From Tubulanus polymorphus (taxonomy: Eukaryota > Animalia > Nemertea), in NCBI RefSeq assembly GCF_964204645.1, contig NC_134028.1, positions 2,852,001 to 2,916,000 on the forward strand: DNA of 64,000 nucleotides, in the 5' to 3' direction. The notes beneath the pieces are model-generated. The model searched no databases, had not been told where the DNA came from, and saw only the letters and a list, made by a program, of their open reading frames with translations. Of this stretch, positions 10,239 through 63,417 are shown one piece after another. Numbering within the stretch: the first letter of the stretch is position 1; every line of letters begins with the position of its first letter. Both the position numbers and the translations under genes were made by a program.

Positions 10239-10453
10239 TCACGATAGGTAGAACACAATATCCGTGTTGACGCGATGAGGAGAGAATCCCACAATGATAA
10301 TAAAAAGTCCGAAAATGAAACTTCGAGATAGTAGTTTATTTCAACGTTGCGACTATATCCTAATAGTCATCTTCAGGAATAACGTTGAAATAAACTACTA
10401 TCTCGAAGTTTCATTTTCGGACTTTTTATTATCATTGTGGGATTCTCTCCTCA
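10239..10453. mobile_element. Penelope-like retroelement end fragment forming a perfect 73-bp inverted repeat
   Basis: Arms 10276-10348 and 10381-10453; direct repeat AGTCAGTTTCA at 10228-10238 and 10454-10464; minus strand reads CTGAAGATGACTAT...ATAGTCGCAACGTTGAAATAAA; related sequence at about 52205-52275. Confidence 0.65.
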
Positions 10454-15500: not shown

Positions 15501-18500
15501 TCCGCAAATTTTCGCGATAGAATATAGTTCGGAGCTTCCTTGGTTTATAACGCTTGAAGTCACGCTTGAAGTCATCGGAAAGAGTTCAAAACCCCTGAAG
15601 ACAATATCGACAGAGCCTGCGGTGAAACTTATATCTAGAAATCTAACAACAAGATGCTTTGAATAAGAGAACGGATATCTAAGATAATAGATGAATTAAA
15701 TCACCCGCGATGATTGAACTCTGCAGTTCAAGTGTCCACTTTAATTGAACTGGCGCGCCCGCTCGCCGCTCCGTGGAAATTCCACGGAGCTGCGGCCCCG
15801 ATAATTGGCAATAAGTATGAAAACATGTCCAGTCGTAAAACCCGGCGGGCAAGTTCTCCGGGCACGTGACTATATATATGTGGTACTCGTGTTAATGGTA
15901 TGTTAGGAATGGAGTCTAGTTGACACTGGGCCTCAAGAGTTTCACCGAGGGCTTCATTCATAACAAAGAGTTCAACATTTTCCATTATTGACCACAATAA
16001 CTGACCATAAGGTCATTTAATCGTTCTAGCCATGAATTGATAAATTCCCCCAGGCTAACATATAAAACGCCTTCCCTTTTGGACAATGTGTCCTATTTGA
16101 AATAATGATAAATATTTATTCACCTTATAAATTTAGTAGTAAGCCCAAAAACTTCTTACCCCATCCTCAAATCCTGTGATTTAGGAGTCATTTTTTCGAT
16201 TCAGGAGCCTTTAACACAAGCGTGTGGTGGAAGAATCTAGTTGATTTGGTCATTTCAGAAATGAATTTGACCAACCGCCCTGAAAGTCTCGGGGACGCCC
16301 ATGGGTGAGGTGCTCGAAAAGGAAAAGAAAGGCTGATAGCATTCTCGGAGACGTGGAGTTAATGAAGATGGTGAAAAAGTTCTGTCGCGAGTAGCTTGAC
16401 CTCGATCAGGGTTGAAGTTTAACCCCTGAATCAAGTGTTCTCCAGACTCTTCACTTCTTGCATGAATGATCATCTCCACACAAACAAAGCTACCGTTGAT
16501 TGTTATCGCAATTTTACGATTATTTTACCATTTCCGCAGTAGTCTGAACGGGCGATTAATAAAATCATAAACATCTCAATCCGAAGAAAAGAGTTTTTAT
16601 AACATCAGCAATAATGACACTCGAACTATTGACTAAAAACGGAACAGAACCATAAATAAAATACCCCCTCTTCTGGAACAATCGTTGAAAAGCTGAACAG
16701 TTTTAAGGAACTATATGCTCTGGTCATTAATTACCATCGGTTCATTATCACATCTATTGTCAGGTGCAGTTAGAAATGGGTTCGAAGATCTCTCCACGAC
16801 TAATGTCAATATCATTAGTTAGGATTTGACGACCAGCACATGTTGGTAGACTCCAAAATGGACAGCGTTGCTAGCCACCCGCAATTGAACGGCTTATCCA
16901 GCAACAGTCCATCCATCCATCTATCCATGGCTTCATTGAATCAAAGCATTCATCCACACGTTCAGATCAAACCAAAAGTTTCTTTAAGCGAAATATAAAC
17001 TAGTTTTTTCACATCACTGAATCATTAAAGTACTTTGTAAACAAGCTCAGATTTGAAGAATAGATATCTGTGAGATTGTTGCGCATATGTATGACCTTGA
17101 AAAGATCATATTTTATACTTTCTAAGCCAGACAGACGTCAATGTTTCACTTTCTTGCAGCTTTATCTCAAAATCTGTATTATTTGAGATAGAAATATATC
17201 AACTATATATATCAATGGATACATATTTCAAGGTCTGTATTTAGTATATAAAAATTTGACATAACTATGTAACTGTTTCCTGAAGAGAATTTCACTTGAG
17301 GAAAGTGGGGGGGGGGTGGGGGTGGGGGCGGGGCGCAGTAATAACATGCATTCATGGAGATAAAAATAATGAAGTTTCTAGACTGTTCATTCAAAACAAT
17401 TAAAATCAGCTGAGTGAGGGGTAATAGTGAGGGGTAATAGACACGAAGATCTCTTTAACTAACAAACTGAGGAATCAATCCTCACAGTTACTTCACAAAC
17501 TGAGGAATCAATCCTCACAGTTACTTCACTGTGTTCAGCTGAGAATGATGAGAAATTAACTGATCACTTAAAAACAGCTCTTACCACCGACATACAGGCC
17601 GTTCATTCATATTACTCAATATAACATTCATCACAAATCCTGACATTTACAATCCGATCGAATCTCCGATCGAATCTCTGTGAATAAATCACGAAAAAAA
17701 ATTCATCTAAAATCATCATTAATTTCTCTGTGTGTGAAACATACCGTCTATAGCAACCATACAGCTTTTAATATCTGATGATGATTAGTTTCTATTTCAT
17801 GATTTTTTTCTTCCTGTTGTGAGGAGTAATCATCGCGATAATGACTGGAAACCAGTCAAACGAATGTCTTGTGTAAATAGTACTGGATTCTGACTAATAG
17901 AGATATCATCAATCAGCTGGCCGAGTGGACGCTGGTCACATCGGTCAGCCGATACATTCTAATGGTCAAGACACACGTCGTAGAGCTGGTCGATAAACAT
18001 TCAGATGTCATTGGAGATAAATCTAGATTGATCGCTCGTCTTACGGATAGAGATTATCTACTAATCCATTTAGACAGGTACAAATTGGTGGCACAATGAG
18101 AGAGAGCGCTGTTTCACCAGAGAGAGACTGATAGAGGTCAGCTGACCAGATTACCCGATAATATCTAAGAGTTAAAAATAAAACGTGTTCTTTTCCATTC
18201 AAAACCTTAAGCCTAGCGCACATCGACACTGCGATTGGAGACAACTAGTTGCAAGGCAGTTTTCGGCGCATGAGAGGAACTGGCTGGATACGATCAGTTG
18301 CTTGAATGTGTCGATGTGAGCGAGCTTACGATTGGTAAGCGTCGATCTATCTCCAGTTCCAGCCAGTTGCCCATGTTCTACTTTTGAGCAACTGGTTGTA
18401 CTCAATCGCAGTCATATCCGTCGATGTGCGCGCTCTGGATCTCGACGATCGACACGCGCCATGCAGTTGCTGCAACTGACCGGTCGTAACTAGATTTCGA

Positions 18501-32199: not shown

Positions 32200-32428
32200 A
32201 AGCCGGGATCAAACCGGATTCAAATTTGGCCCGTGTCTAATTAGAGAACGCTTTCATACGTAAACCACTCACTCGATATTAAACAATGCTGTGGCAAGTG
32301 AGGCGAGTCACTACTAGAACCAGTAAGCATTTACACGCCATAATCTGACCCGTGCTAAAATTTGGCACAGGCCTGGTATGGCGCGCTAAATTTGGTCCAG
32401 GTCAAAACTGCTCGTGTGATCTCAGCTT
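32200..32428. mobile_element. Dispersed MITE family, with related copies at about 52692-53000, 54955-55170 (reverse) and 44480-44695 (reverse)
   Basis: Shared blocks caaattt(g)gcccgtg-ctaattag, gtggcaagtgagg-gagt and tgacccgtgctaaaatttggc; imperfect AGCCG-GATCA/TGATC-CAGCT ends. Confidence 0.75.
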
Positions 32429-42427: not shown

Positions 42428-45400
42428 TTACACATTTGTGGTGTTCATCCTTTCATCCTGAAAAAATATCAAATGATGAAACATTGATTTAATCGATTAA
42501 TACCACAATGAAAATGGTTAAATTTTTTGAGGGGCAATTCTATTCAAATTTTCTATTTCACCGCAAAAAGCACTTTCCTATTGAAAAAGGGCAGATCTAA
42601 AATATAAAGTGCCCGGGTACCTGAATAAATTATTTGAGAATGGATTACTTTTCGTTTTCCAAAAGAAACAACATGAATATTATGTCCAAATTTCTAAAAT
42701 CTTTTTACGCTGACTTTTCGAAGGGCAAAAATTTTAGAGGGTTCGTTTGCTATCCCTGAATCCACCTCGGCATGGGTCTGGTTCACATGATATTCTAGGT
42801 CAAGCTATGATTGACAAGATTTATGGCCAGTCTCGCTAAGACACATTTCAATTCTGGAAAAGGCATTCAGGAAAACATCAGTTAAGGTAAATTCAAGTTT
42901 ACATATTATATGGTGTTCATTCATGGGTAGTAACTTCATCATCTAATGTAACTACATTCTACAAGCAAAGACATGTGAATCTATTGTTTTAAATCTAAGT
43001 AAACTGGTAAAATCAACAATAAAAGACAGGATAAACGCATGCAACTAGTGAAGCTCTATCTAAAACTTTTATGAATTATGAAAACATTACTCAACAAAAT
43101 TGTCTTGTTTTTGAAGAAATGCAATCTATATGGAATCATTACTCAAATTTCTATTGGAAATTCGGATTCATCTTTGACGGCATTTCCTCTGACAAAACTG
43201 AGTTAGAGGTAGGATAATGAAGTTAGAATGATAATTCTAATGTTTGAAGTGCAAATGTCATGCATTACCTCTATTTGTGACCGCTACCATTTATAAGGGG
43301 GTATGTTTACAACTATAAAACATAGAACAACAAATTTCATGAGAGTAAAAACTACTGTATGAACAAATTCATGTGAGATAGTGTCGAGAAAGAAAGATCG
43401 ATTATAAAGTTGGATCAAGAGGTACCAGATTGGATGCAGGAGATTCCTTCTCTTTAAATCTAACATTCACAACACTGATATTTAACCTTCTAACAGCATT
43501 TATGAACTTTCGCAACTCGAATGCAGAATACAACACAAAATAAAACAATGAATGAATCCTAATTACACGACAGACAACGACCACTCACCGGTGTTTGGGC
43601 AGAGCCCTGTCCAGAGCCCGGTCGTGAACCTTGCGATCGTGGTCTCATAGGACCACCTCTTCCAGTGCTGCCGCTAGGTGAACCTCCGCGGGCGCTGTTC
43701 GGACCGATCGACGTTTCCGAATCCCAGCGTTCTAATTCCTCACGTACTAAACGTTCCATTTGTTCGCGTTTGACTTCGTCACTCGTTCCATCGGACTAGA
43801 AAATAACAACATAACATATCAAACTCTGCGTATCATAGCATCATCAGTCAGAAAACTCTCTGAAATCAATTGGTCAGGTTTTCTCGATGTACATCTCAAT
43901 ACAAATACATAGTAAAACATCCCCGATATACCGCCATACTCTCTATACCACCAAAATCATTCTACACTGATGTTGGCTTAGTCTAGTACCTAGCGGTTGT
44001 TCGTTGTAGGGAACCGGTAACAGCGACTGGTATTCAGACTAATGTGGGCAGTATATCGGGGGTGGACTGTATAAGTAGTTCACGAAAAAGAATTTCGATT
44101 TGGTTGATTTGATTCATACCTCTGTGATGCTATCCAGTATTTTTCCCATTGTTTCGCGACGTTTCAGCTTCGCTTTCTCCATCGCCTCTAATTTCACTAA
44201 TACGGCGTCAATTTTCGACACGATGCTGCCGATCGAATGTTCCATACGATCGACGCGTCGCGATAATACCGTAAATTCTTCATACGATACGCCACCTACG
44301 ACTCGTCCGCCTCGTGATGATTTCGTGCCGCTGTCTTCGTCGTCGCTGTCTTCACCGCTGTCTTCGTTTAAACTGCTGCGACTCGGCTGACGGGCTGTAG
44401 CCGGTCGTCCTCCTTTCTCTAGTTCCTCATATTCTTTGTTCAAAGCAACCTGAAACATAAATTGTTAATTATTTGCAGAGACATAAAATCATGCCCAGAA
44501 CAACTGCTCACACAGGTGCCAAATGGACCCATGCCTGTTTGACCGGACCAAAAATGTCCCACCAGCCCCAAGTCAAATCTTAGCATGGGTCGAAAGAATT
44601 GTTTGATGTCCAGTGCGCGAAAAATCAGTCTTGGCATGGGTCGAAGGACAATCAGTCTCTAATTAAGCATGGGCCAAATTTGATCAGGGCTTGAATCGTA
44701 CTGTCTTACTTAGGGCTACACAATTACATGTAATTCATTTCTAAAAATTTCCAGAATCTTCTCCAGACTAATTGAACTTAGATTACCTTTTGTCCCTCAA
44801 GATCTGCTTGCATTTTGCGTTGTTCCTCTTCGTCCAGCACTCGATCGCCATCCAAATCATACTTAGCAAAAACAGCTTCAATTTCTGTATCGGCATACCC
44901 ACGCCTAAAGAGTATCAATAAGAAATCAAAAGTTGAACAGGGTGGCCACTTTTATTTGATTTCCTCTCATCCCCACGTCATTTTCCCAGACTGGGTCTAC
45001 TAAAAATCGAATGAATTAACAGTCAACTATGCAAGACATAGACGGAACTGATCTTACATGCGATCCATAGCCATCTGAACAAATTTCCCCGATTATATCC
45101 TGACTTTTTAGAGAAAAGAAAATTTCCCGCTCTTCCCTGATTTTCAGGTAAGTGGCCACCATGTTTAAGCATATTATTTAATTTTTCAGACATGTATCAT
45201 ACACTTCACATGTTTAGATACTCACGTTTTCAGATCCTGCCTCCATTCTTCGAAGTCGAGTTGCTTATCTTGATTTATATCGGCCGACTGAAGCGCTTTC
45301 TGAATATCAACGATCTTGTCTCGTTTCAGGCTCAGTTTATCGAGCATCTTATTGTAGCCCTGTGAAATAACAAAACAATATGAGATGCTAGTGTATAGTG

Positions 45401-48400
45401 AATAAGCATTTTTTTCACTAAAATATTTTCAATTCCTGAATCCTACTAACCATGAATTTTCAAGAACTAAGTCAAAATAAGAAATTGTGAGGTAGTAAAA
45501 ATTCTCGGTTATGAAACAGACGGATATAAAATCTGTTATCTTGTTTTGAACAGTCACTCATAGTCATATAGTCTTTAGCACCTCCCGGTACATAATGAAA
45601 TAAACTAAACACCAAACTTAACGATAAACAAGTCCACTGTAACTTTCACAAAAAATTTTAACATTTCTACATCGAATCGACTTCAAAATGCTCCTCATCA
45701 TCTTCAGTATCGGTCATTTCTGCGATGCAAATCTCTCTTAATTCATCCATTCTTTCGGCTTGTTTTTTCGCGTACATGTAATACATTTTACGCACACCTT
45801 CCAGCGTAGCCATCTGTAAACGTCTGTTGTGCATAAATGCGCGTGTATTATCCGCACAAGCTCGTTCGAACTGCACGTCCAAATGACGTAATTTCTGATC
45901 GATAACATTCACTTTTTGACACGCTGCTCGAAATTTCTTATCCAAAGCGAGGAATTCTTGTACGGCTGTTGATGACATTTTCAGATATTTCTTTAACCGA
46001 GTCAATGATTTTTCTAATTGACGAAGAGAAGGTTCTCATTGAGCTCTATGAATGAACTGACAGTTATGGCAATTAGGTTTTATACCAACCAGGAGGACAA
46101 CACAAAGCCCAATTTCATCGACCAATCAAAATGTAGCCCTAATTTATTAAGGTGTGAACCAAACAGCTGGGAGGCATAGTACAAATACCCAATAAAAACA
46201 CACTATAGATTGTATAGATTAATCAGACACCAATAATGCAATTAAAATACTATCCTTACTTTGATGGTCAGTAATGATAAAAATCATACTTTACTTAAGT
46301 AATACTTTGTCAATGATTATTGTAAATGCGCAGTTTTTGTTAGATATTGTATTATAATTCTCTTCATGCAGTAAATATAAAGAATTTTGAAAAAAAGAAA
46401 TATTATATCAAAACCTATTTTTCCAACTGATATGAAGTCTATTCTACGTTCTTTTTTTTGAAAAAGATATTTCATCTTTTAGGCCTCGCAGAATCTGATT
46501 AACAACTGGAAAATGTCAGATTATCAGATATCAATCCAACAATAAACTGATGTCTTCGAATCATTGAAATAATCATCACCTGCATCCTGGATATGGGCAC
46601 ACTTCCACCCCGAGGGCCAATATTGATGCTGGACAGAATAACTGAGAGCCAGGTGCCAATAGTGTCAGGTGGCAAACTATGTCAACATAGGATCAGGTGA
46701 CACCAAGTGGCTGAAGTGTGCTAATAAAAAGCAGCTCACATCATTCCCTAATATTTTCCCAGTCTTTGATACTACCACTGATAGACACACAGTTAATCCC
46801 TGATGAATGATTACATGCACTTCACACATTCCAACAGATTTTATCACCATTTACACTTGTCCAAAATCCCTTACAATCTCCCAGATTAAATCAGGGACTT
46901 TACTCCTTCATCAAACCAGATTTCATCACTTTCACCAGTAATCAAAGAGACAGATTACTGTATAATCAGCCAGATCAAATAAACATTACATACAAATCAT
47001 GTATAAATATTATGAATGAATTATCAAATGTTGAATTGCAATAATTCTACTGTATTTTTGAGATGATGACATAAAACCTAAAATATTATGTATAAATCAT
47101 ATGTTCAACTGATACTGGAATATGCGGACATAATATGGCATAATATTCCTAACAACTTAGTCATTGAAATCTTTAAAAAATTCAGCTAAGCACATTTAAG
47201 AGTGATCACTGGTCTACTATGAGAACTGACTGTAAGATTATATACCAGAGGTCAGCTTTCACGTCTACCCAACCACAGACTATTCTATTGCATTATAAAT
47301 CCGATAACCGACAACCTTGAAAGCACTTGCACATGGACGTATAACTAGTCCATGCTTGCACTAACCGTACATGAGAATAATTTGTATAGTATACTATATA
47401 CGCATAGTAAAATATATGGGCAAATACTGAATCGTTTTCAAAATCTTTCATTCCCCAAATAACCAAAGATTGAAAAAAAATTACTGCTTCATGTTAGATG
47501 TGATGACTTTTTTTAAGACTATGATTAAATCAATATCGTTCACCGGTGCAGTACTAGATACTCAAGAAAACTCGAGATATTCTCCTTTGCAGAATGCGAA
47601 TCAAAGCGAGTGACTGAACACTTATCTTCATAATGATTTTATACTAGATGATTACTAGTGCAGCTATGGGAGCATTGAAACTGCTGAATACCTTTTGTAT
47701 TTTCAGAATTTTGAGGCATCCTGCAATTTAATATTTAACGGAATTACCAATCACATTCCTTTTGATGCTATTAATATTGAACTGCTGATCCATGGATCCA
47801 GCCTTTACCATTAGCCATAAACATCATCATTTCAACAGTCGAAAACTTTGTATTAACTCAAAACACTTTGAACAAAACATCTACTTCATAATATACTTTA
47901 ATAAATACTGCATATTTATTCACTAATTCACGTATAATCAATAAAGTCAACTTGGTCATAGTTATATAGTCTATAGCACCTCCCGGTACACAATGAAATA
48001 AATTAAACATCAAAATTAACGATGAATCAAGTCCACTGTAACTTTCACAAAAACATTAACATTTCTTCATCGAATCAACTCGATTGTGCTTCATCTCTCG
48101 TATTGGTCATTTCTGCGGTACAAATATCTCTTAATTCTTCCATTCTATCGCCTAGTTTTTTCACGTACAGGTAATACATTTTACGCACACCTTCCAGCGT
48201 AGCTATCTGTGATTGTCTGTTGTGGATCAAAGCGCGCGAATCATCCGCATAAGCTCGTTCGATCTGCACGTCCAAATGACGTAATCTCTGATCAATAACA
48301 GTCACTTTTTGATACGCTAATTGAAATTTCTTATTCACGACGTAGAATTCTTGTACAGCTGGTGATGACATTTTCTGATATTTCCTTGAACCAGTTAATG

Positions 48401-51400
48401 ATTTATTCCAAGGGGTTTCTAATTGACCAAGAAAGAAGGTTCTCATTGAAGTCTATGAACGAACTGACAGTTATGGCAATTAGGATTTCAACCAGAGGAC
48501 AACACAAAGCCCAATTCCTGTCCAATCAGGACATAGGCATATTTCATTTAGGCATAATCCGCTGGAAGACATAGTACAAATACCCAATAAAAACACTCTA
48601 CAGATTAATCACATACCACCATATACTTACTTATATGCTCAATAATATTTACATAGAAGTTACGTAGGTCTATGATTACTGTATATGAATATATGTGCAA
48701 CTTGTATTAGAATATAATTTTCATAATTCTCTTCATGCAATAAATATAAAGAACCTTCAAACTTTATATCAAAATCATGCATTCTCTTTTTGAATAGAAG
48801 ATATTCAATCTTTTAGGCCTGGCATAATCTGATTAACAATTGGAAAATGTCAGATTATCAGATATCAATCCAACAATTAACTGATGACTTCAAATCATTG
48901 AAATAATCATCACCTGCATCCTGGATATGGGCACACTTCCACCCTGAGGGCCAGTATTGATGCTGGACAGAATAACTGAGAGCCAGGTGCCAATAGTGTC
49001 AGGTGGCAAACTATGTCAACATAGGATCAGGTATCAGCTTGACACCAAGTGACTGAAGTGTGCTTAAAAAGCAGCTCACATCATTCCCTAATATTTTCCC
49101 AGTCTCTGATACTACCACTGATGGACACATAGTTAATCCCTGATGAATAATTACATGCACTTCACACATTCCAACAGATTTTATCACCATTTACACTTGC
49201 CCAAAATCCCTTACAATTCCCCAGATTAAATCAGGGACTTTACTCCTTCATCAAACCAGATTTCATCACTTTCACCAATAAACAAAGAGACAGATTACTG
49301 TATAATCAGCCAGATCAAATAAACATTACATACAAATCATGTATAAATATTATGAATGAATTATTGAATGTTGAATTGCAATAATTCAAATGTATTTGAA
49401 TCCAACTCAGAAGCCATAAGTTGAAATTTGAATCTGACAACTCCTAACTATGGAACAGGATCCAACTGGATTTAAATGAGCTGGCTGACTTTCAGGCAGA
49501 CATAAATTTTACCGATCGTGGAAACATTACTTTGTCAAATAACTAAAATCAATAGATATAGCAAAGACATGTAACTAAGAGATAAACTACTCTATAGCAA
49601 TAAAAGGAAAGGTCATATTGCCCAGAAACCAACTCCAGTGATTGCCTTGCAATAAAGCGATATCATAACTGTTATACAAACAAAAGGAATAAATTATCGA
49701 TTGATCAAAGTAAATGCGTGATCAAAGGATGTTTATGGTGTAATATTGCACCCTTATTGTTCAATTAAACCTAGCAACAGTACAGCACATCTGTTTATAT
49801 TTCATTTCAATTCAAAAGTTTCACACAAAGAAATAATCATTTAGAAATTTCTAGAGATATTATCTACTATTTCAACACCTAAGATTTAGTGAGTTGCTCA
49901 CCTTCTTGAAGTAGTCGGCCATTTCAAATTCATTTTTCTGGTTGGCGATGTCGGCTTTAACTTCAGAGTACGTGTCGTTGATGATGGCCAAGAACATGTT
50001 TATCAAAACGAAGAATACGAAGAAGACGTAAAGCAGGAAATACAACGGACCGAGGATGTAATGTGCGCGTTCCATTTCGTGGAAATCGAAATCACCGAGA
50101 ATGATTCGCAACAGTGTAAACCTGCAATAATATCAACATCAGTAAGTTAGTTGAACATCTAAGGGTGTGGCCACCTAAGAAATCCCTCCCAGTTTTCCCT
50201 GATTTATCCATGTGATTACAAAAAAATCCCTGAGTGAATCAGAGAAATTTCTAGATTTAAAATGTTACAATTCATTCATTTTTCATTGAATCATCTATTG
50301 ATAAAGAAATATGTGGTCAATAACAGTATCCACATTCCCCAAGTTTTCCATCATCTTTTCTAGATTTTTCTGATTCTCTAGAGTTTTCCAGGTCGGTGGC
50401 CATCCTACATGTGCATGTTCAAATTTCGTATCAGTTGTCCAGGAAGGTGACCACAATCACAGTTTTTTTCATAAGAAATTTTAGTAACTTCAAGAACCAA
50501 ATTGAAACAACTTTATCATTTTTTCTTGTCTATAGAACTGACAATGGCCTTGCATTACAGATCCCCCCCTTTTATTTTCAAGTTGACCATGTACATCCAA
50601 CCGTTCTGAAGGTACTTACACAGCGTCGAAGAAGCTCTTGAAATCACGAATCTGCGTACCGAAAATCAGATAACCGAGCTGAGCGAAGGCGAAGAATATG
50701 ATGAAAAACATCACGAAGAATCCGGCTAAATCTTTGGCTGAACGACTGAGGGTTGATGACAGTTGAGTCATTGTCTTGTTGAAACTGATGTACTTGAATA
50801 CCTACAACAGAAATTATACAGAAGTATTTAATGCATTTCAACTATATATGTGTATTTTTCTTTTTGATTTCAACGTATTAAGCAATTTTCATCTTTCATT
50901 TTGGGATTTGGTTATTTCCGTTTTTTGCTTATACCTTGATCCATGAGAAGAAGATGGTGATCGCGACAGCGTTGTTGAATTCGACTTGATAATAGCTCAA
51001 CTTTTCGAAGTCCATGAAAGACTGGCTGTTTTTCAGTAACGTTTCGAGTTTCTGCGTAACGACGAGCGTACGATAGATGTTGAACGCGATACATACAATC
51101 GATATGATAATCACAATCACGTCGAGAATGTTCCAGAAACTCTTGAAGTACGAAAACTTGTGTTTCTTGATCTGTTGAAAATGATATTGAATTTATCGTA
51201 TAGGTTCAAACAACTAAAAAGAATGGAGAATTTTTCTCAGAAAATTGGCGTCTTATTTAGATATAGTTGGATAAATGAACGAGGGTCAAGTCAGCAGGCA
51301 TCTTAATTGAAAATGAACTCGTTTTTGGAGTTGATAGAGAATAATTAGAATGTAACTGGGTCCTAATTTTTGTTGGCGATGAGAAAAGATATCAGAAGTA

Positions 51401-54400
51401 TTGCGATAAATTGTGCAACAAACAGCACAAATCGAAAGGGTGTTTGAAACGCACACCAGAATAATTGCACAATATATTTAACAGAGTTCACTGAATGACA
51501 TCTCAAAACATCACAACAATACTGCCAGTACTTTCACTCGTGTACAATACACACTAGAACAAAATGTATCTGAAAAACAGACACTCAGCAATACACAATG
51601 TACGGACACATGTGTAATGGACTGCACTGCAGCAGCGGTACCACACAATAGAACAGCGTCATAACAGGTGCGAGTTTGTTAGGGATGAAAGAACAAACCT
51701 CGATGAACTCCTCAACCATGTAATACAGTATATACAGACAAAATATACACTCGCAAACAAACACGAAACTATCCGTATTCGTATTATAACGAATCAGTTT
51801 CACAGTACGAAATACGGATGACGTAATCGCCCCACCTGTCGATGGGAACTCCATTACTAGTCTGAAATGGGCGGCGATGCGAGAGAAAAAGAGAATAGAA
51901 AAAAATATTTGATTAGATCGCGCGATTTATATGTATATTATGCGATGACCGATCGACTACAGTTTTGAACCTGAAACACTGGGAAAATAGAGTCCTACAC
52001 CGGAGAGACATTGACCCTGCGAAAATTTTGAGACTCACAGACCCTGCGAAAACCTCAGGGAGTTCGTTTCTATCAAATACTAGATATGGCATACGTCATG
52101 GTGTCAGAAATAAACAAAGGCAATAACTAAGATACAGTAAAATCCCATGATACAAAATGAGTCCCAATCGTTTCCTTGAGCTAGAAGTTTTTCTTCTATT
52201 TCATCTTGATAGTCATCTTCAGAAATACTAATATGGATAATCAAGGTATAATCGAAACGTTGAAAATAAACTACTAGCTTTTCAGACTAGTCGTTCTTTT
52301 TGTATTGCGAGATTCTACTGTATATCATTTCAACATGGTAATAACTAAGGTTATTGTGTAGGGTTCATCATTTTTCCAGTTTAGCAACATCTACTGAAGT
52401 CGCGTGATCAGTCATGCATAATACACTGAAAACTGACCTCGATAATTTCCTCAATCGAGTAGTAGATTATAAACAGAACGAAGATACATTCACAAACGAG
52501 GACAAAGTGGTCCAACGCGGTCGCGTAACGGATCAGTTTCACCGTGCGGAACACAGATGAGGTGATAGCGCCACCTGTTGCCGGGAATTCAAAAACCAAC
52601 CTGTAATTACATCAACAACAACGTGCTCATACAGAAACACACATAACATACACAGAAATGTTTTTTCTCGCAATTAGTAAAAGAAAAACATAAGCCGCGA
52701 TCACACGGGGAAAATCTTTCCCAGGTCAAACCGGCACGGACCAGACCTCAATTCAAATTTGCCCGTGCCTAATTAGCGAGTGCGTTCACACATAAATCAC
52801 TCACTTGTTTCAAAAAAATGCAGTGGCAAGTGAGGTGAGTTACATCCAGAACAAACTACCGGTAGAGCTTTCATACAAAATCATTTGACCCGTGCTAAAA
52901 TTTGGCGCCGACGTGGTCACACATATTTGATCAGGCCAAATTTCAAACAGGCACTGATGTGAACTGGCACTTGTCACAAAACTCTAGTGGGATCGCAGCT
53001 ATGATATAAGACAGTACACTGCAACATAGTGCAAGGTAAAATCAGTGTATTATGCATAGAAATTACATACAATATGAAGAATGACATTTTAATAAAATTT
53101 GACGACTGAGATCAAAACAATGATGCTAGCTCGATTAAGTAGAGATAATTGGATATCTTTTTAATTCTAAGTATTTGATCAAATTTCAATTCTCTACTTC
53201 TATGCAAATACCAATGAATTTAAAAGTTTCATAACACAGCTGCATCAACATACCTCACTACGCAGAATAGATTGATATTAGCATTGTAAACGGTAAAATC
53301 AATGAACACTACTCTCGTGCCTCTGTCCAACCACAGGTTATCTTTCAAAGCTCTGATTATTTCCGTAGATTCGGCTTTGGTCAGTTTCAGATCCTGCACG
53401 TAGCCACCCCCGCCGTACGATGTTATCTGACCCATGTGATTCGAACCGTCCAGGGCCGCCGAAGTCTGATAGCGCCACCTAGAAACGATAGCAGGAATGC
53501 GAATAGGCACATCTCGATACAAATTTTTATCAAAAGATTTTTCCTGGAAATAATTAAAGAGCTCTCATTATTATATTAACAGCTGCACTGAAAAACATTG
53601 ACTTGAGTAATTTCTAGACAATTGATCATACAAACTGCTCGCCCACAAGAACAGCAAACAGACGTGAATTCAACAACTATTCAGAGCTGTTAAACATCGA
53701 TTCTGGCAGGAGCTCTGGTAGAGTGCTATAGGCCATTCACCTGGAGCCGGTTCCACAGTCGTGTAGATGCTAGACTTAGTTAGAGAGTTGGAGTTGACTC
53801 ATTCGATATGAACTCCAAATCCACTCCAACTCATTGTGGTTAAGGATCCAGATCCAAATTTGTGATTTTATTCGGCGGTAATTCATTGAAAATGAACTGT
53901 TTTTAACTCAGGGAGAGTAAACTCTTACAACTGTGGAACTGAATCCTGAACATTTATAGTCTGTTAAGGAGAGGGGGGATATGATTTATTCCTCCCATTT
54001 CCGTAGTGAACGCGATCCTAGAATCAAGGTTATTTCAACCTCCCCGGCAGGGATTCGAACCTGATGGCATCGAGATTACCACGGCATGAAACCCTGCCAT
54101 AATCGACCGTGTGCGCAGATACATGCGCAGTTCAGATGATGTGATTTTTAGCCAATCAGAAATCCCGTTTTATTTTAGCCCGGGTTTTCCCATTTATAGT
54201 TCTTCCTTGAAATTTGCCTCAACGATTATACAACGAGCAATCTGATTGGTGCCGCCAGTTTTCGTTCGGAAAGCTGCGCATGTACCTGTGCACCCGGTCT
54301 ACTGATGCAGGGGTTCGTGCCGTGGCTGAGTGTAGCGATGCCATCAGGTTCGAGTCCCTGCAGAGGGAGGATGGGTTATTTCTCGCTGAAACTTACGCGG

Positions 54401-54889
54401 TGCTCGTGTTGTATTTCTCAAACGGCCCGAATGGAGACTTATCTTCAATGGTTTCCGCGTACGATTCGTAGCATTGTTTGATTTCGTCGGCGAAGTCAGC
54501 GTGAACGATGCACGAATTGTTGCGTACTTTCAGTTGTCGTAGACGCGGAACTCCGAGCAGTTTGTTCTCGTAGTAGATATAATGCAGTTCGTCAGCGCTC
54601 AGGTTTTTACCGTTATACCAATTTTCCCAGTATAGTCCATCGAGGAGTGGTCCTTCAGCGAACTGCAAATAGGTACAAATTGCTTTTTAATGTACAGTTA
54701 AAATCAGGAAAAAATGTTTTTATTTCACCCGATAAGAGCCGCAATAAGCATTTCATAACCAAATATGATAAGTCCCTTCCCACCGGTGCCAAATGGGTAC
54801 AATTAAGCGTCCTGGCTTTTTCAGTGACCACCTCAGTCGGAGAATTAGCGCTTTGAACTTTTTTATGGAAAGGCGCTATAGAAAAACTG

Positions 54890-54942
<53 letters not shown>

Positions 54943-57900
54943 CATTACATGTATGTTTCACACAGATCAAATCTGGTCCAATCAAAATCTGCAGACCAGG
55001 CCTGTGTCAAATTTCAGCACAGGTCAGATTACTGCATGTGAATGCTAACTGATTATTGAAGACCTCACTTGCCACAGCATTGTTCATCATCGAGTGAGTA
55101 GATTTCGCGTGAACGCACTTTCTAATTAAGCGTAGGTCAAATTTGACTCAAAATGACCAAACTTTGGTTCATCTAAATCTATTTTTTTAAGATAATTTTT
55201 GGTAGTTCTTACCCTCCAGAAGTCGGCCATCGTGTTGGAGCCGCGGAATGTGTTTTTTGTGTCGTTAAATTGAGAATCGAGGAACAGTTCACTCATCACT
55301 TTAGTGTAGTAATACATCGTAGTACTCGTCATACAAAACGACACTAAAATAAAAACAACGAATAAAGCAAAATATCAATAACATTATACAACAGCCACAC
55401 TCAGCCGTGGAGAAGTCAAAACCCTACTATATACTGATTATCAAGATTAAAATTCGAAATTTCTCAAAGACAAATTAAAATGAAATTGGACAGGATGTTT
55501 ACCATTATTTACTGACAGAACTTTTTTGAACTCACTGAAACGACAAACTGATGAACGAATGCCGCTAATTGCAGCACCATACGTCAAGAATATTCACTAC
55601 AAGTGAAAGACTGGTCGGAATGGTCCCCACTTAATTGATGATGATCATCATTATCATCATAATCATCATCATGATTCATTTTCACGCTCAAAGATTTTCT
55701 CTAGAGAGAATCCAAAACTTCTTCGTCAACTTATTTTACTAATGGCATATTAAGAATATATTATCATCAGAGATAGTGGGTGACTTTTTTCAGGAATTCT
55801 TTCATTATTTCAATCACTATTGCAAGCGTTTAATTTGTTCAAATTGCAGCCTTCAATATTATTTTTACCAGCCACAAATTTTCAAAATAGCTTTTATGGA
55901 TTAAATCAATTGAACGTGCGATGGTGCCAATCATCGTAAAACAATTTCATATACTGCGCATAAATAAAAAGTGAAAATTTCAGATCGGAAATCTCGTGCT
56001 GGTTGTTTTACTGATAATTTGATAGTGAATGCTTATTGACATACAATACAACAGAACCTGCGCAGGTTCCATTAACGTCTAGTTCACTACCCAACGCTGG
56101 TTCGTTGCCATGGTGAAATAAGATGCTTACTACCGGTTATCAATAATTGATGAAGTGAATTCTCGATAGCACGCCTCACAGGATACGCGCGCGCGCATAT
56201 ATATATACAAAATTTACTATTCAAAATTCGAAATTATTCCGAAATAGGCTTTAGGGCTAGATGTTTTTCTTTGAATTTTAATAAGTTTTACAAAACTTCT
56301 GTCAATGTTACATATACATGTAAATACATCTTCACGTGATACACGCGTCATCAAAAACATTTTCACAAATATTTCTGGAAAATCTTTTACATCCATACTT
56401 TTTTCACGTCATTTCTTAACTACTAAAAAAGCTGCTGTCAGTCTGTGGGCCATTTCATCTATTGATATATTCCCTCTTCAGGGAAGCATTTCGTAAAGTG
56501 CTCTGAGCAGCTTGCTGGATTTAGCACTTTATAAGCCGCATTATAATTATGCACAATGATATAAGCAGATGATGAAAATGTCAATTTGTGAAGAAAAAAA
56601 AATCTCTATTCTTATTTTGAATCGACCGTAAATATAATCTCCGCTCTTTTTTAAATCTTCAGTTTCATCATCAGTTAATTCCTCAATATTGATTATGCTA
56701 TTCAACGACATCAGGTTTTATCGAGGTTTCTATAGTGACGACCGTTTCATGTTGTCATTACGGGAGAAATCGCACGGAATCGTCGTCGCTCCTAAACAGG
56801 ACAATCTCTCCGCACGAACAGTTTAAAACCGCCAATATTGTTTTGACAAACTTTATCATATTTGCTAATATATAAAATCTAACACAATATATTTTCCAAA
56901 ACGATATTTTTTCCACAATTTTTCCCACAATAGCTGTGTCTCTTTGGAACAATATCGATCATACTCTCCGTCTCACACTATTTTTCATTAATCAGAATTG
57001 TGCAATTTTTTTGAAATTTCTCATCTGAAATATATTCAAGCACGTTTCAAAATTCAATTAGATAACAACTACAGATTCTGTGATTACATGACATAATAGA
57101 AATAGCATCTGCAACCAACACAAATGTTCATTTTAACAATGTAAATATCATCGATCAAAGACAGTTTATCTAATGAAAAGCAAATCAGCCCTTATAACAG
57201 GCCTTTAGGCTTATCCAGAAAGTGCCAAAAATTGTTATAGACTGAATCAAAGGGAAAACTGTGACAAGGAAAATATACTTACGAATTCCCAGGATGATCA
57301 AAAATATCAGATAAACGATTAACTCTCGCAATGTTGTCTTGACGTGCAGTTCTCTGTCCTGAGAGGTTTCTTCAGTCTGTCGTGTCGCCCATAACGCTGT
57401 AAAATAGAAAAAATGTTTCGGAATCAGCAAAATGATATCTTAAAACTCAACAATCAGCAGGTCTATACGAGGTTTTATGATTGTCTTTTATGAAAATGGA
57501 CCCAGTTGATGAAATATACCCTAGTCAATATGGTTTTTCTGTTGATGTTGAAGACCATGAACTAAAAAAAACTCTGACAAGACATTTGCGTAGATTTCAT
57601 CCATATCATTTATCAGTAAACATCAATCTAATCAGGTAGCAATTCAATCTGATAGGATCAAGGTCATTAAGATGAAGTTTCACATTCTAAATTGAAGCTA
57701 TGTTTTGAAAAACATTCTTTTGACTGAAACTCTAAATATCATTAATTTTCTCATAAAAATCAATCTTCTAGAAACATTTAAGATGCGTGCGTGTGCATTC
57801 CAACGCACAAAATCTTTTTCTTACGTCAAACGCCGGTTGCCATGACACGTAATCTATTATTGACAACTCGGACGAAAGCGGAACGTGCCACAATTCATCA

Positions 57901-58808
57901 GTGACACGGATAGAAGAGAAACACGACGCAGTAATTCCATGAATTATTTAATTTTCAATTAAATGCTATGCTACCTCATCAATTTTTCAAGTTAACAACC
58001 GTCAAGAGGCTAGTAACACCTGATGAATCTGAAGATTTTATATTCCAGAATTAGGGACCGATAAGATTTATCAATTCCCAATAATACCTTAGGCCTATAT
58101 CAGATTGAAGAATTTCAACTTCCTAAATGCTCAGTAATTTTCTATTTTGGAGGCCTAGGTGTTTATATCTTACGGAGTCTTCCCTTTTTGTCCCTTCCCC
58201 ATATTTTCACCCCTACCCATTTTTTCGATCATGCCCCTTTCCCACTGGGCCCTTTCTTTGTTTTTGATATTTTTTTCCGGTTATTTTCATTATTTGTTTC
58301 TTTCTATTGCCTTCATAAATACTATCAGTACACCCACTGAAATTTCTCTTTTCAAATACGCGTAAAACTTTCGAAACCAAAATCGAAAATTGAAATTCTG
58401 TTTAACCTTTGAAACAAGAAAGTGAGGAATAAGCAGATAAGTCAGAAAAATAGAATCAGCTTCAAAGTTAAATAAAGAATATTACATATCGTGATACTTA
58501 CAACGCAGGCCTCTTTTGAACTTGTACCAGCAGCCGTGAGGTTCTTCTACAACTACCTGTTGATCGGTCGGACCATCCATAACGCGAACGGCCCCATCGA
58601 CGTACATTTCACTTTCCATCGCCGCCGGTTGGTCATCGTACCGCGCCCCGGGATTATCGATACCATCGTCGCTCCACGCGTGACGCGATTGGGCACTGCT
58701 CGGGCGCTGTAGTCGATTCCGCGTGATGCTCCCAGTCGAGCCCATACGATCCATCTCTAGTGAATCGTTCGCCGACAGTCGCTGTGAACTCGTCGGGCGA
58801 CTACTCAT
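42428..58808 (-). CDS. PKD2: Polycystin-2 (TRPP channel), 14 coding exons per transcript, about 887 aa
   Basis: Exons joined in frame with GT-AG ends: 58808-58502, 57396-57283, 55343-55213, 54662-54397, 53478-53254, [52600-52438 or 51861-51699], 51171-50935, 50801-50620, 50121-49902, 45359-45226, 44904-44787, 44449-44120, 43795-43589, probable last exon 42457-42428 (DERMNTTNV*). Hallmark motifs: [45 protein letters not shown], pore [26 protein letters not shown]-hand [14 protein letters not shown], coiled coil [20 protein letters not shown]. The last exon is the least certain. Confidence 0.96.
44938..45163. mobile_element. Degenerate TIR element (hAT-like ends), with a relative at about 50161-50406
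   Basis: CAGGGTGGCCACT...AGTGGCCACCATG ends and internal TTCCCTGA motifs; no clear target duplication. Confidence 0.55.
45667..45978 (-). CDS. Intronless 103-aa predicted coiled-coil protein of unknown function, nested in PKD2 intron 9 (copy 1)
   Basis: AAAATGTC start context; helical periodicity; acidic tail; TATAAAA at 46084-46078, 31 nt upstream of a TCATTC initiator-like motif; CCAAT at about 46122; frame conserved with copy 2. Confidence 0.8.
   Translation of the reverse strand: MSSTAVQEFLALDKKFRAACQKVNVIDQKLRHLDVQFERACADNTRAFMHNRRLQMATLEGVRKMYYMYAKKQAERMDELREICIAEMTDTEDDEEHFEVDSM
48075..48371 (-). CDS. Paralogous 98-aa nested protein (copy 2); TATA box altered, C-terminus changed by an indel
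   Basis: 64 of the first 93 residues identical to copy 1, including [11 protein letters not shown]; AATAAA on the minus strand at about 47915-47920; additional in-frame upstream ATG at 48446. Confidence 0.72.
   Translation of the reverse strand: MSSPAVQEFYVVNKKFQLAYQKVTVIDQRLRHLDVQIERAYADDSRALIHNRQSQIATLEGVRKMYYLYVKKLGDRMEELRDICTAEMTNTRDEAQSS
51699..51861 (-). CDS. PKD2: PKD2 alternative exon 6b, paralogous to 6a
   Basis: 163 nt, strong polypyrimidine tract, tttcag|...|gtttgt, same phases as 6a; encodes [54 protein letters not shown]; no stops. Confidence 0.92.
52438..52600 (-). CDS. PKD2: PKD2 alternative exon 6a (end of TOP domain + S2 helix)
   Basis: 163 nt, ttacag|...|gtcagt, phase 2 in / phase 0 out; encodes [54 protein letters not shown]. 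Confidence 0.93.
53744..53946. mobile_element. Degenerate Harbinger-like MITE, related to about 21383-21489
   Basis: Ends GAGCCGGTTCCACAG...CTGTGGAACTGAATC with CTG/CTG flanks; similar GGTTCCA/TGGAACC ends and TAGACTTA block at 21.4 kb. Confidence 0.6.
54036..54373. mobile_element. 338-bp foldback element with 8-bp target duplication and tRNA-like B-boxes in both arms
   Basis: GGTTATTT at 54028-54035 and 54374-54381; arms CAGGGATTCGAACCTGATGGCATCG / CGATGCCATCAGGTTCGAGTCCCTG, ACATGCGCAG / CTGCGCATGT, CCAATCAGA / TCTGATTGG. Confidence 0.85.
54890..54942. repeat. (ATT)n microsatellite
   Basis: Directly visible in PKD2 intron 3. Confidence 0.98.
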
Positions 58809-59420: not shown

Positions 59421-60867
59421 AAAAGCTACTCGTTGTTTTTCTGTCAGCTGATAACTGTTTGACAGGTCACAGCCAGTGCTACATTTCAAGAGCGTTTGCT
59501 TCAGTCTAAAGTTGCGCTTTACTTTTAACAGAATATTCATTGCGAATGGCATGATATGAGGTAGGCCTTGATAGCATATAACCGCATATATTGCATGCAT
59601 TTGAATTGCAGTGAGGAGTCAGAAGATCGAATCCAAGATTTTGAAAAATGAAGGTGAAGATTTTCGAAGTACAGAATGGATTCCATATTCCATAATATGC
59701 GGGTTTGATATATTTACTTCTAGTGGGAACAGAAACAGGCTCATTTTAGTTGAAGAAGATGCAAATTTGACCTGTTGACTTTGATGTAAATTGACATGCC
59801 AATGCATGATTAGAACTTGTGCTTCTTCAAGCTCAGTCAGTTTTCTACAGTAAAATCACGAAGCCTTTTTACGGTGGCACAGCCAGAACTTCTATAAGTC
59901 ATACTACAAACTTGTGCAGTTATCTAATAGGATCAACACATTTTCATTACTCAAGCAGATAGCTTAGATTTACCCAGAATTGTAGCCTTTATCTGGTGTT
60001 TATGTTAGGCTATCTGTAGTTCTATCCATTCTAGTGAACTTAAAACTATTAAACATTGATCGTAAACATTAAGGTATGGTTTGATTGAAATATTCATGTT
60101 CTGGAATTTCAATTGACAGCGTTCAATTTATTAAACTATTTAATCGGGCATGTTAGTTTGATGTAGGCCTATGGAGTTTTTACTATAGGCCTATACTGTT
60201 GATTAAGCGATTGTTTAGACTAAATCGTTTTCATATAACGAAGGATTATTTCGTACTTGTAAATAGACAGATGTTTGCATAGATTATTTTATGTAACTGA
60301 AGTCAGCTGTGAACTGTCTAAATTCCTCATTCTAGTTTAAGCTACTTACAGAATATTATGCTTCGATGTATTATTCATGCATTTCTATACTTAACTATTC
60401 TGTTAAATCTTAACCCGGTAGATGCCACCGGTTACAAATGGTTGGTTTAGGAATCCTCACCAATCGGAGCCAATCTTTGCCTTGACAGATTTTTTATGAT
60501 TTAATTTTTCAGGTTCCACCAGCAGAGTTCACTTGAAGCAGCAGCAGCAGCAGCGAGGTTATCGCCGCATTGTTTTCAGTTGGGTACTATGCCAGCCAGA
60601 TATACGATACACCGATCCATGCATAAACAGTCGACATTATATGCAAATATACCGTTCTGTAGTGATTATTTAATGACACAAAAAGTGACTACCAAGTGTT
60701 CGTTAATACGAGAAAACTCTGAGGATTTAAATCACCAAATAACGCTCTTTTCATTCTAATTAGTCAATGTCGTCAGTTTGAATTCAATTCGGGTCATATC
60801 CAAAATTCTAAAATATTAAATTTCCGAATCTTGCCACTGGAGATACAAAGTTTGTTGATTCATCGGA

Positions 60868-63417
60868 ATGCCAAAGTCTGGTCGAAATAGTCGTCATGCG
60901 AGCAAATCATCATCCTCGTCGTCGAGTAGCGACAGCGATTCCGATTCATCGGATTCCTCTACGTCGACTTTACCGATGCCAACGCCGCCCGATGGCGGGT
61001 ACGGATGGATCGTCGTTCTAGCAGCGTTCATCGCGAATCTCCTCGCGGACGGCGTCGCGTTCTCGTTCGGGGTTCTACTCGACGAGTTTCTCGATTATTT
61101 CAATGAATCGAAGAGTAAAACTGCGTGGATCGGTTCGTTGTTTCACGGTATTCCGCTCATCTGCGGCCCGATTTCGTGCGCGTTTATAAACAAGTTCGGC
61201 TGTCGTAAAGTCTGCATCGCCGGAGGCTTCGTATCCAGTATCGGGTTTATTTTGAGTTTTTTCTCGCCGAATATTGATTTCTTATGCTTTTCGTTCGGCA
61301 TACTCGCCGGTTTCGGACTGTCGATGGTTTACACGCCAGCCGTAGTCATCGTCGCGTTTTACTTCGAAAAACGGCGAGCATTCGCATCGGGGCTATCGGT
61401 ATCGGGTAGCGGTATCGGCGCCGTCATCTTCGCGCCCTTATGCGAGAAGCTGATCGAATGGTACGGCTGGCGCGGTACGCTATGGATCATCGGCGGTTTG
61501 ATGTTACATTTCATCATCTGCGGCGCGTTGTATCGACCGCTCGAAACGAAACGCGAACGAAAACGTCGTAAGCTGATGCGATCGTTGGATCGGTTGTCAC
61601 GTTTGCGAAACGAGTCGAGCAACAAATCGGAATCGAGCTCCGAAAGTTTAAACGACGGCAGCTATCATAAGAAAAACCACCGGCGACGATTACTACGTCA
61701 ATTCAGCGAACCTCTACATCATTCCCTTATTACATTTCCGACATTCATGAAGGCGTCTGCTCAAAATCATCCGAAACAATCGAAAAGCGATAACGTCATC
61801 GACGACATGACTTCGAATTCCAAGATACCCGACGGTGAAGATTCGCAAAAATTTTCCGTAAAGGCGAATTCGGTATCGTGTATCGACAATCCTGAAACGA
61901 CGGACACTCCTGAATCGACGTTATCCGATCCGGTCGTCATTCTTATAAATGGTGCTAGAAAACCCGAGGATCAGGCGCTTCCTGACAACGATCTGATGAT
62001 TAACTTTGCGAACAGTAACTCGGATACGGCTGGTCAAACCGTCGATGCGCCCGCAATCGATGAAATAAATACGTTAAACGATGCGACAACGTTACACAAT
62101 AATAAATCTAACGGTCACCATCACCATCGAAAGACAAGCGCGACGAAACGAGATGAGAGTCAATTTTTACCGCTGTACCGTCGAGATATATTCTACCGCG
62201 GTAGTTTACTACGATTGTCATCGATACGCGATCAGGTGACCAGTCACAGCTGTCCGAATGTCTACCAAATGCACGACGATGACTCGTCGTCGAGCGATGA
62301 CAGCAGCGACGGTAAACCGTGTCGATGTCACGGGCGAAAACACATCCGAAACGTCATCCGCGAAATGCTCGATATCACCATCTTAAAGAATCCACTCTAC
62401 TTGTTATTGTTCATTTCGAATTTTATTTTGTATATGTGGTTCGATATTGCCTATTTTTTCTTGCCGAACTACGCGACCGAGCTCGGTGTATCGGACCAGC
62501 GAGCCGCGATGGCGATATCGATAACCGGTATCGCTAATATGTTAGGACAGATCTTTTTCGGGGTGATCGGAGATCGTCCGGAGTTGAACACGGCGTATGT
62601 GTATGGTGCTGCTACCGCTGTCTGCGGTGTCGCCTCGTTATTCGTCCCTTTTTGCCGAGAGTTTATTAGTATTTGGGTATATAGTGCAGTATTCGGCTTC
62701 TTCATCGGAGCCAACTATTCTCTTGTCTCCGTGATTATTGTGAAAGCGCTGCTTTCACTGGAAAAACTAACAAATGCTTATGGCATAATAATGTGCGGTC
62801 AGGGTGTTGCAAATCTAATCGGACCTCCTTTGGCTGGTGAGTGACTTCTTATCCCCGATGCTTTAACCCTTTCGGTGTATCTACTCCGCAGTGCGATGTA
62901 TAAATCAGTGATGGACGTTGCTAGTGCACTGCACCGCTGTTTATTGATGTTATCAGTAATTACATTTTATATACCTGGTATATTGAAAATTGGCAGCACC
63001 TGTCAAACATAGCAAATTGTTGGTAAATAATGATACATGGTATTGCTGTTTAGACGCGTATAGCGGTTGCCCGTTATTCAGCACACAGTACTAAAAGGGT
63101 TAATAGATGTCAGGGATGTAACCATTCAATGCACTTTCCTGTAATCATAAACTGTATACTTTGTTTCAATTTCAGGATACCTGTACGACATCACTGGTAA
63201 CTACACGGCTACGTTTGTCTGCGGTGGAGTATGGATATTCATCTCTGGAGTTATGTTGTTCTTGGTTAAACCGATCAAGATGTGTCAGAAATGTTGCGCG
63301 AAATATCGCTCGAAAGAATCTTCATCGACGATGTCGGGCTCGTCGTCCAGGGAAACAAACTTGCAGACGACTTGTGACATCGAGTTAAAATCTGCGAGTC
63401 GCGGAGTGGCTTTATAA
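60868..63417 (+). CDS. Monocarboxylate transporter (SLC16/MCT family, MFS), 736 aa, large central cytoplasmic loop
   Basis: Exon 60868-62836 (G|gtgagt) + exon 63176-63417; PPDGGYGWIVV signature, [33 protein letters not shown]; two hydrophobic helix bundles. Subfamily not assignable by eye. Confidence 0.95.
62867..63099. mobile_element. piggyBac-type MITE in the SLC16 intron
   Basis: TTAA|CCCTTT...AAAGGG|TTAA. Confidence 0.8.

Follow-up and report, generated by a model that had tools for sequence, protein, structure and literature searches.

A duplicated exon 6 and a predicted RNA switch in the PKD2 gene of the ribbon worm Tubulanus polymorphus

The PKD2 gene of the ribbon worm Tubulanus polymorphus carries two homologous copies of exon 6, here called 6A and 6B, and judging from the reading frame only one of them at a time can yield a full-length channel. 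On balance, and as somewhat better than an even bet, we favour the reading that these copies are a live mutually exclusive pair with 6A as the common form and 6B as a minor or regulated one, the choice between them being made by two competing RNA helices predicted in the flanking introns.

The PKD2 gene and its twin exons

Positions refer throughout to the window, the 64-kb stretch of DNA that was analysed as a whole. The gene lies on the minus strand (full coding span 42428..58808), and its computed splice with 6A gives a protein of 887 aa identical to RefSeq XP_074647869.1 (polycystin-2-like X1, Tubulanus polymorphus). In the spliced model, exons 1-4 (58808-58502, 57396-57283, 55343-55213, and 54662-54397) lead to the constitutive exon 5 (53254..53478), which ends in phase 2 upstream of the twin exons, while the constitutive exon 7 (50935..51171) starts in phase 0 downstream of them and is followed by the remaining exons at 50801-50620, 50121-49902, 45359-45226, 44904-44787, 44449-44120, 43795-43589, and 42457-42428, all on the minus strand. 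The gene encodes a PKD2/TRPP channel, with a TOP domain between S1 and S2, a TRP-type six-helix core, homology to PKD2/PKD2L1, and Pfam matches (PF20519/PF08016) that count toward this assignment. A protein model of the 6A form, built from an alignment of 78 sequences (a single-sequence prediction with pLDDT 41 was left unused), has its best match among human PKD2 structures (6t9n, E 8e-48, 55% identity).

Intron 9 of the gene also holds two paralogous, uninterrupted open reading frames of ~100 aa each on the PKD2 strand (48377-48078 and 45978-45670, minus), which are 67% identical, lie in a tandem duplication of ~2.35 kb, show only sub-threshold Pfam matches (DUF2452, Cor1) and are possibly nested genes. 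About 2 kb upstream of PKD2, and divergent from it, lies a major facilitator superfamily transporter gene (60859-63414, plus strand; Pfam MFS_1), which may resemble the monocarboxylate transporters.

As originally described, 6A (52438..52600) and 6B (51699..51861), both on the minus strand, are each 163 nt long and run from phase 2 to phase 0; they are bounded by AG and GT and separated by 576 nt. Exon 6A encodes residues 349-402, corresponding to human PKD2 441-494, and 6B is its intact paralogue. The coding sequence through exon 5 amounts to 1043 nt (phase 2), and splicing by script of either copy alone returns 887 aa. Joining 6A to 6B leads to a stop within 6B at 51784 (427 aa) and skipping both leads to a stop in exon 7 at 51117 (365 aa), which bears out the frameshift foreseen for both events. 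A profile scan with each of 13 coding exons found a second copy of exon 6 alone. Like tandem duplicated mutually exclusive exons, the two copies are adjacent, homologous, and equal in length and phase.

Both copies are open in frame, with splice signals that appear usable from their sequence. The donors of 6A and 6B match the consensus at 7/9 and 6/9 positions, inside the range of the other exons, and when set against the U12 donor consensus both are ordinary GT sites, so that the pair shows no U2/U12 incompatibility. The 6B acceptor region (51862..51920, minus) has a long pyrimidine tract and an AG-free zone of 93 nt, the longest among the 14 acceptors of the gene. Linear steric exclusion is not found either: within its final 150 nt the 576-nt intron has a single branch-point-like site, at -52 (A at 51913), which in linear distance is 524 nt from the 6A donor.

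According to the protein model, exon 6 encodes the last two strands of the TOP domain, a junction loop, and then helix S2 from residue 376; in human PKD2 the TOP domain is placed at residues 242-468, as against 441-494 for exon 6 (PMC7229662, in the part available). The segment that reads YATALDH in one copy and YNTNTDS in the other had been described as the extracellular pre-S2 linker, and in the model this is apt for its first part, a loop, whereas the rest would form the first turn of S2. The junction codons of 6B (51788-51777) contain a 6-nt tandem repeat, which suggests slippage with the exon length kept.

Predicted helices in the flanking introns and the switch they could form

Three intronic elements on the minus strand form the proposed switch. 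R1 (53042..53058) lies in intron 5, R3 (52393..52429) starts 9 nt past the 6A donor and is the arm common to both helices, and R4 (51933..51963) reaches to 19 nt upstream of the branch point predicted for 6B. A repeat scan detected R1 and R3 as a perfect 16-nt inverted repeat around 6A, and the predicted helix has 16 perfect pairs and one G-U (17 pairs in all, -25.2 kcal/mol), its 612-nt loop enclosing 6A. Folding indicated that R3, the downstream arm of that repeat, also pairs with R4 in a 29-bp helix (-37.5 kcal/mol) which joins both ends of the 6A-6B intron. When the first 50 nt of the intron were paired with its last 120 nt, R3:R4 gave a z of -5.4 (0/300 shuffles), and the other 12 of the 13 introns in this test, which left out one short intron, ranged from -1.1 to +2.1. 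A perfect inverted repeat like that of R1:R3 appeared in 1/1000 shuffles, and its duplex energy was reached in 6/500 with a query chosen after the fact; with the first 50 intron nt as the query the pairing was not significant (38/150 shuffles). Support is thus strong for the predicted R3:R4 helix and moderate for R1:R3.

These helices overlap by 14 nt of R3, which gives a single intronic element two competing partners in the predicted folds, as in the ATE1 type of switch. In folds of the growing transcript R1:R3 has a probability of 0.998 before R4 is transcribed and R3:R4 one of 0.99 afterwards, and forcing R1:R3 in the longer fragment costs 7.5 kcal/mol. Once R4 occupies R3, a further element (X, core 53196..53206, minus) is the predicted hairpin partner of R1. 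With R3:R4 formed, the model leaves 11 + 19 unpaired nt between the 6A donor and the 6B branch point. A position-blind test for competing triples (one element with two partners) was matched by 3/230 shuffles; constitutive exon 4 scored better, probably owing to repeats. Perfect inverted repeats of at least 16 nt also occur in 3/24 other 2.5-kb tiles of the window. No partner of R3 above chance was found downstream of 6B (179/500 shuffles), and there was no Rfam match in 50900-53500.

Structures of this kind have been proposed to arise by the duplication of a hairpin arm (PMC6071210, in the part available). An origin of R3/R4 by duplication of X/R1 is unsupported here (40/1000 and 288/1000 shuffles), an unrelated intron having scored equally. 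A 12-nt element in the 6A-6B intron (52280..52291, minus) is a perfect complement of the 6B acceptor (51867-51856), a match seen at its position in 3/500 shuffles. It sits in a repeat-like, transposon-like hairpin, the pairing does not form in nested folds and would be a pseudoknot with R3:R4, and the element is a weak candidate. The imperfect hairpin at 52125..52330 in the same intron resembles an inverted-repeat element near 10280-10450 and is likely a decayed small transposon. Inverted or dispersed repeats were observed at ~10280-10450, 17900-18300, and 52751-52917, the last of which lies in intron 5 between R1 and 6A and resembles 32218-32377 and 55062-55146.

Taken together, the elements would allow a switch that depends on timing. 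Before R4 is transcribed, R3 would pair with R1, so that 6A is looped out and its donor lies 9 nt from the helix, a state that would favour the splicing of exon 5 to 6B. Once R4 has been made, the stronger R3:R4 would displace R1:R3, free 6A and close the 6A-6B intron. The ~30 unpaired nt then left from the 6A donor to the 6B branch point would block the joining of 6A to 6B and hinder 6B, given a steric limit of ~50 nt between donor and branch point (PMC5740500, PMC7969005, in the parts available). The ratio of 6A to 6B may be set by the speed with which R1:R3 is displaced, through elongation rate or RNA-binding proteins, and the decay of frameshifted transcripts could serve as a back-up. A late R3:R4 state that frees 6A agrees with 6A being the annotated form. 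Provided that 6B is used at all, we consider these helices probably functional, and as predicted competing structures they independently strengthen the case for mutually exclusive splicing under regulation.

The same exon pair could also be live and exclusive through splicing proteins and nonsense-mediated decay, the helices being leftovers of small transposons without a role, an explanation to which we give roughly one chance in a handful. Both aberrant products carry early stops, in 60% of human clusters the length is no multiple of three (PMC5740500, accessible part), inverted-repeat elements are common in the window, with one of them inside the 6A-6B intron, and the competing triple at constitutive exon 4 is stronger. 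However, the 64 kb tested hold no other close copy of R1, R3, or R4, these elements lack a target-site duplication and a common interior, and the R3:R4 arms stand exactly beside the donor and the branch point, a helix seen in none of the other introns tested. Decay was also not the main cause of exclusion for SCN exons 5a/5b, as far as the available part of that report goes (PMC12772994).

Divergence of the two copies and the use of exon 6B

Alignment upholds the count of 13 differing residues out of 54, and 54/163 nt differ between the copies, which rules out an assembly artefact or an allele. Among the 41 identical residues 25 are coded by different codons. The dN/dS comparison that had been suggested for the pair yielded, by the Nei-Gojobori method, a pS of 0.84 and a pN of 0.17 (Fisher p 8e-14), with synonymous sites saturated and replacement sites not. 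The differences number 2 at exon positions 1-25, 4 at 26-31, and 7 at 32-54, while the means between the 114 homologous exons of our panel (thinned from 172) are 6.4, 2.8, and 8.0, respectively. In comparison with orthologues the N-terminal half is therefore more alike, the junction more divergent and S2 ordinary. Gene conversion cannot account for the identity in the N-terminal half, since the synonymous sites there differ.

The differences between 6A and 6B sit on variable columns (permutation p 0.0005), and each copy retains 19/20 of the columns that are 95% conserved in the 114 homologues. The copies also have four rare residues in common, one of them unseen in all 114 homologues, and these are not found in Lineus longissimus. 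Because the differences fall on variable columns, conserved columns are kept and rare residues are common to both, the sequences point to a duplication within the lineage of this worm, after which both copies were long constrained. In simulations of neutral decay at 0.3 substitutions per site or more, at most 0.04% of 5000 runs remained open with at least 41 identical residues, which rules out that 6B has been dead since the duplication. The codon comparison, column conservation, and decay simulation all agree with the original claim of an old duplication with both copies under purifying selection.

On the protein side, the eight differences at positions 31-54 gather on one face of the helix, with the invariant residues, among them the acidic S2 glutamates, on the other (p 0.014). 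In PKD2L1 the S2 glutamates lie near an S4 lysine (PMC5575081, in the part available), and by alignment exon positions 50 and 54 correspond to E369 and E373. We infer from this arrangement that the S2 changes are mostly lipid-facing and mild, with any functional difference residing at the junction and the first turn of S2. Since most S2 changes are at variable columns opposite the invariant acidic face, the sequence suggests that any effect of 6B is subtle, and large gating effects are unsupported; the 6A and 6B proteins would be modestly different, mainly at the TOP-S2 junction and the first S2 turn. No new glycosylation site is present in 6B, and a search on human residues 464-471 returned nothing relevant in the literature on their roles.

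The pair had been proposed to give two PKD2 isoforms. Exclusivity of the full-length products follows from the frame, as set out above, but both RefSeq isoforms of the gene (2/2) use 6A, differing only at the C-terminus, and 6B occurs in neither. None of the 111 proteins of 96-2000 aa that matched a profile of both copies is 6B-like, and no 6B-like short protein of 29-95 aa was found. Even so, we think it likely that 6B is still used, 6A probably being the usual form and 6B probably a minor or regulated one.

An exon that was long functional, lately fell silent and is starting to decay would leave only 6A channels at present, with R3:R4 simply excluding 6B; we rate this as improbable, at about one chance in six. 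The absence of 6B from both isoforms and from the matches of the protein search speaks for it, as does the low profile score of 6B, which is under that of 112/114 homologues (6A lies above 28), and its three residues that are absent from all 114 homologues, which correspond to human positions 466, 471, and 474; at 466 the residue of 6A, a different one, is likewise unseen. The lowest-energy fold favours 6A as well. Of the copies simulated under neutral decay to 0.1 substitutions per site, 58% still look open, with 41/54 residues identical, and a silence of less than ~0.1 substitutions per site may thus be compatible with the simulation; only 2% of copies decayed to that extent, however, hold a profile score as high as that of 6B. 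Furthermore, 6B has no stop or indel, its splice sites and strong acceptor are intact, it keeps as many near-invariant columns as 6A, its unusual residues are clustered at exon positions 26-34 rather than spread over the exon, and the perfect 16-nt R1:R3 match would be useless in a gene that makes only 6A channels. That 6B is a poison exon, spliced in behind 6A so that the frame shifts and PKD2 output falls, irrespective of its protein sequence, is very improbable: the stop of the 6A+6B product inside 6B lies far upstream of the last junction, and R3:R4 brings the 6A donor near the 6B acceptor and could be read as a bridge that aids joining, but selection on 6B is in the PKD2 frame, which an out-of-frame exon would not need, and the spacing left by R3:R4 is under the steric limit.

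Known splicing systems, other animals, and meaning

Exclusion at Dscam exon 17 reportedly depends on steric hindrance plus RNA structure. The closest parallel to the favoured switch is human ATE1 7a/7b, where the order is R1, exon, R3, R4, exon and the structures were validated by mutation and antisense oligonucleotides; breaking one helix there led to more use of the exon that it hides, and breaking both led to double inclusion (PMC7797038, in the part available). As in ATE1, the worm has tandem homologous exons and an inter-exon element complementary to elements upstream of each exon, with helices that exclude each other. In ATE1, however, R1 and R4 are alike and each overlaps an acceptor, whereas the worm R1 lies 441 nt upstream of the 6A acceptor, R4 stops 72 nt short of that of 6B, and the likeness of the two is not above chance (288/1000), so that paralogous partners overlapping the acceptors are lacking; the worm R3 also abuts the 6A donor, unlike its ATE1 counterpart. 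The ATE1 system is conserved among vertebrates and backed by mutational tests, whereas the worm switch is a prediction from one genome. As modelled, the switch works like ATE1 in the order of its elements but is not a copy of the ATE1 design. Related control has been described in the srp, Dscam, and SCN genes (PMC4691838, PMC12772994, accessible parts). In OGDH 4a/4b donor and branch point are likewise kept less than ~50 nt apart (PMC7969005, as available), although in the worm the linear distance is shortened only by the predicted helix.

Among ion channels, the duplicated exons of CACNA1, SCN, and cacophony are comparable in being homologous pairs in a six-helix channel with mostly conservative changes, and independent origins of such exons recur in the voltage-gated channel superfamily, with enrichment and convergence established (PMC9741552, PMC12772994, the former for recurrence; both in the parts available). 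The worm gene differs in belonging to the TRPP family, and its exon spans the polycystin-only TOP domain plus S2. PKD2 is absent from the available text and supplements of PMC9741552, which hold part of the human genes only and have TrpA1 in the fly list, and likewise from the text of PMC5740500 and the entries listed in its supplement and from the text of PMC9013439, as far as these were available. A literature search that took in few subscription journals turned up no report of duplicated alternative exons in PKD2; a crayfish paper in which the relevant terms occur makes no connection between them.

In other animals, no second copy of exon 6 was found at 75 metagenome loci, a set that included no nemertean genomic DNA; at 16 of them (11 distinct peptides) the same 163-nt cassette was present with both neighbouring exons in view. 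Because the cassette is shared by these 16 loci and a second copy was seen at 0/75, the sequences indicate that the borders of exon 6 are old and that the duplication is not general. None of 35 same-species groups of isoforms (proteins of 700-1000 aa only) swaps exon 6, and no exon swap was seen in the isoform pairs of barnacles. In four of the groups, belonging to two Lingula anatina genes and two Branchiostoma species, it is the exon 2 region (pre-S1/S1) that is swapped, and this region is single-copy in the worm gene. The RefSeq isoform pairs concerned differ by 16-22 residues confined to that region, apparently as homologous exon swaps that are already annotated, and the alternative exon 2 form is conserved between the two amphioxus species. 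These PKD2 genes resemble that of the worm in swapping a homologous exon on the sensor side of the channel. No paper on the exon 2 swaps was found in the literature search.

The class of event is well known; what is new is the case in PKD2 exon 6 together with a predicted RNA switch that can be tested. The Lingula and amphioxus swaps suggest that TRPP belongs among the channel families that repeatedly gain alternative exons, and the predicted switch would extend ATE1-like exon choice by RNA structure to a ribbon worm, in a compact unit of 2.5 kb. In polycystin-2, which is mutated in polycystic kidney disease, the way in which TOP couples to the voltage-sensor-like domain is still an open question (PMC7229662, in the part available), and selected variants of the TOP-S2 junction, with the residues of 6B at human 466, 471, and 474, are a ready test of that coupling. 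A broader proposal, which we hold as speculative and put at perhaps one chance in four, is that invertebrate PKD2 has repeatedly gained alternative sensor-side exons and that in the worm a kinetic RNA switch with on-demand steric exclusion picks 6B, whose polar TOP-S2 junction would alter the coupling between the TOP lid and the voltage sensor. If that proposal is true, the exon pair would be a natural two-state probe of polycystin gating.
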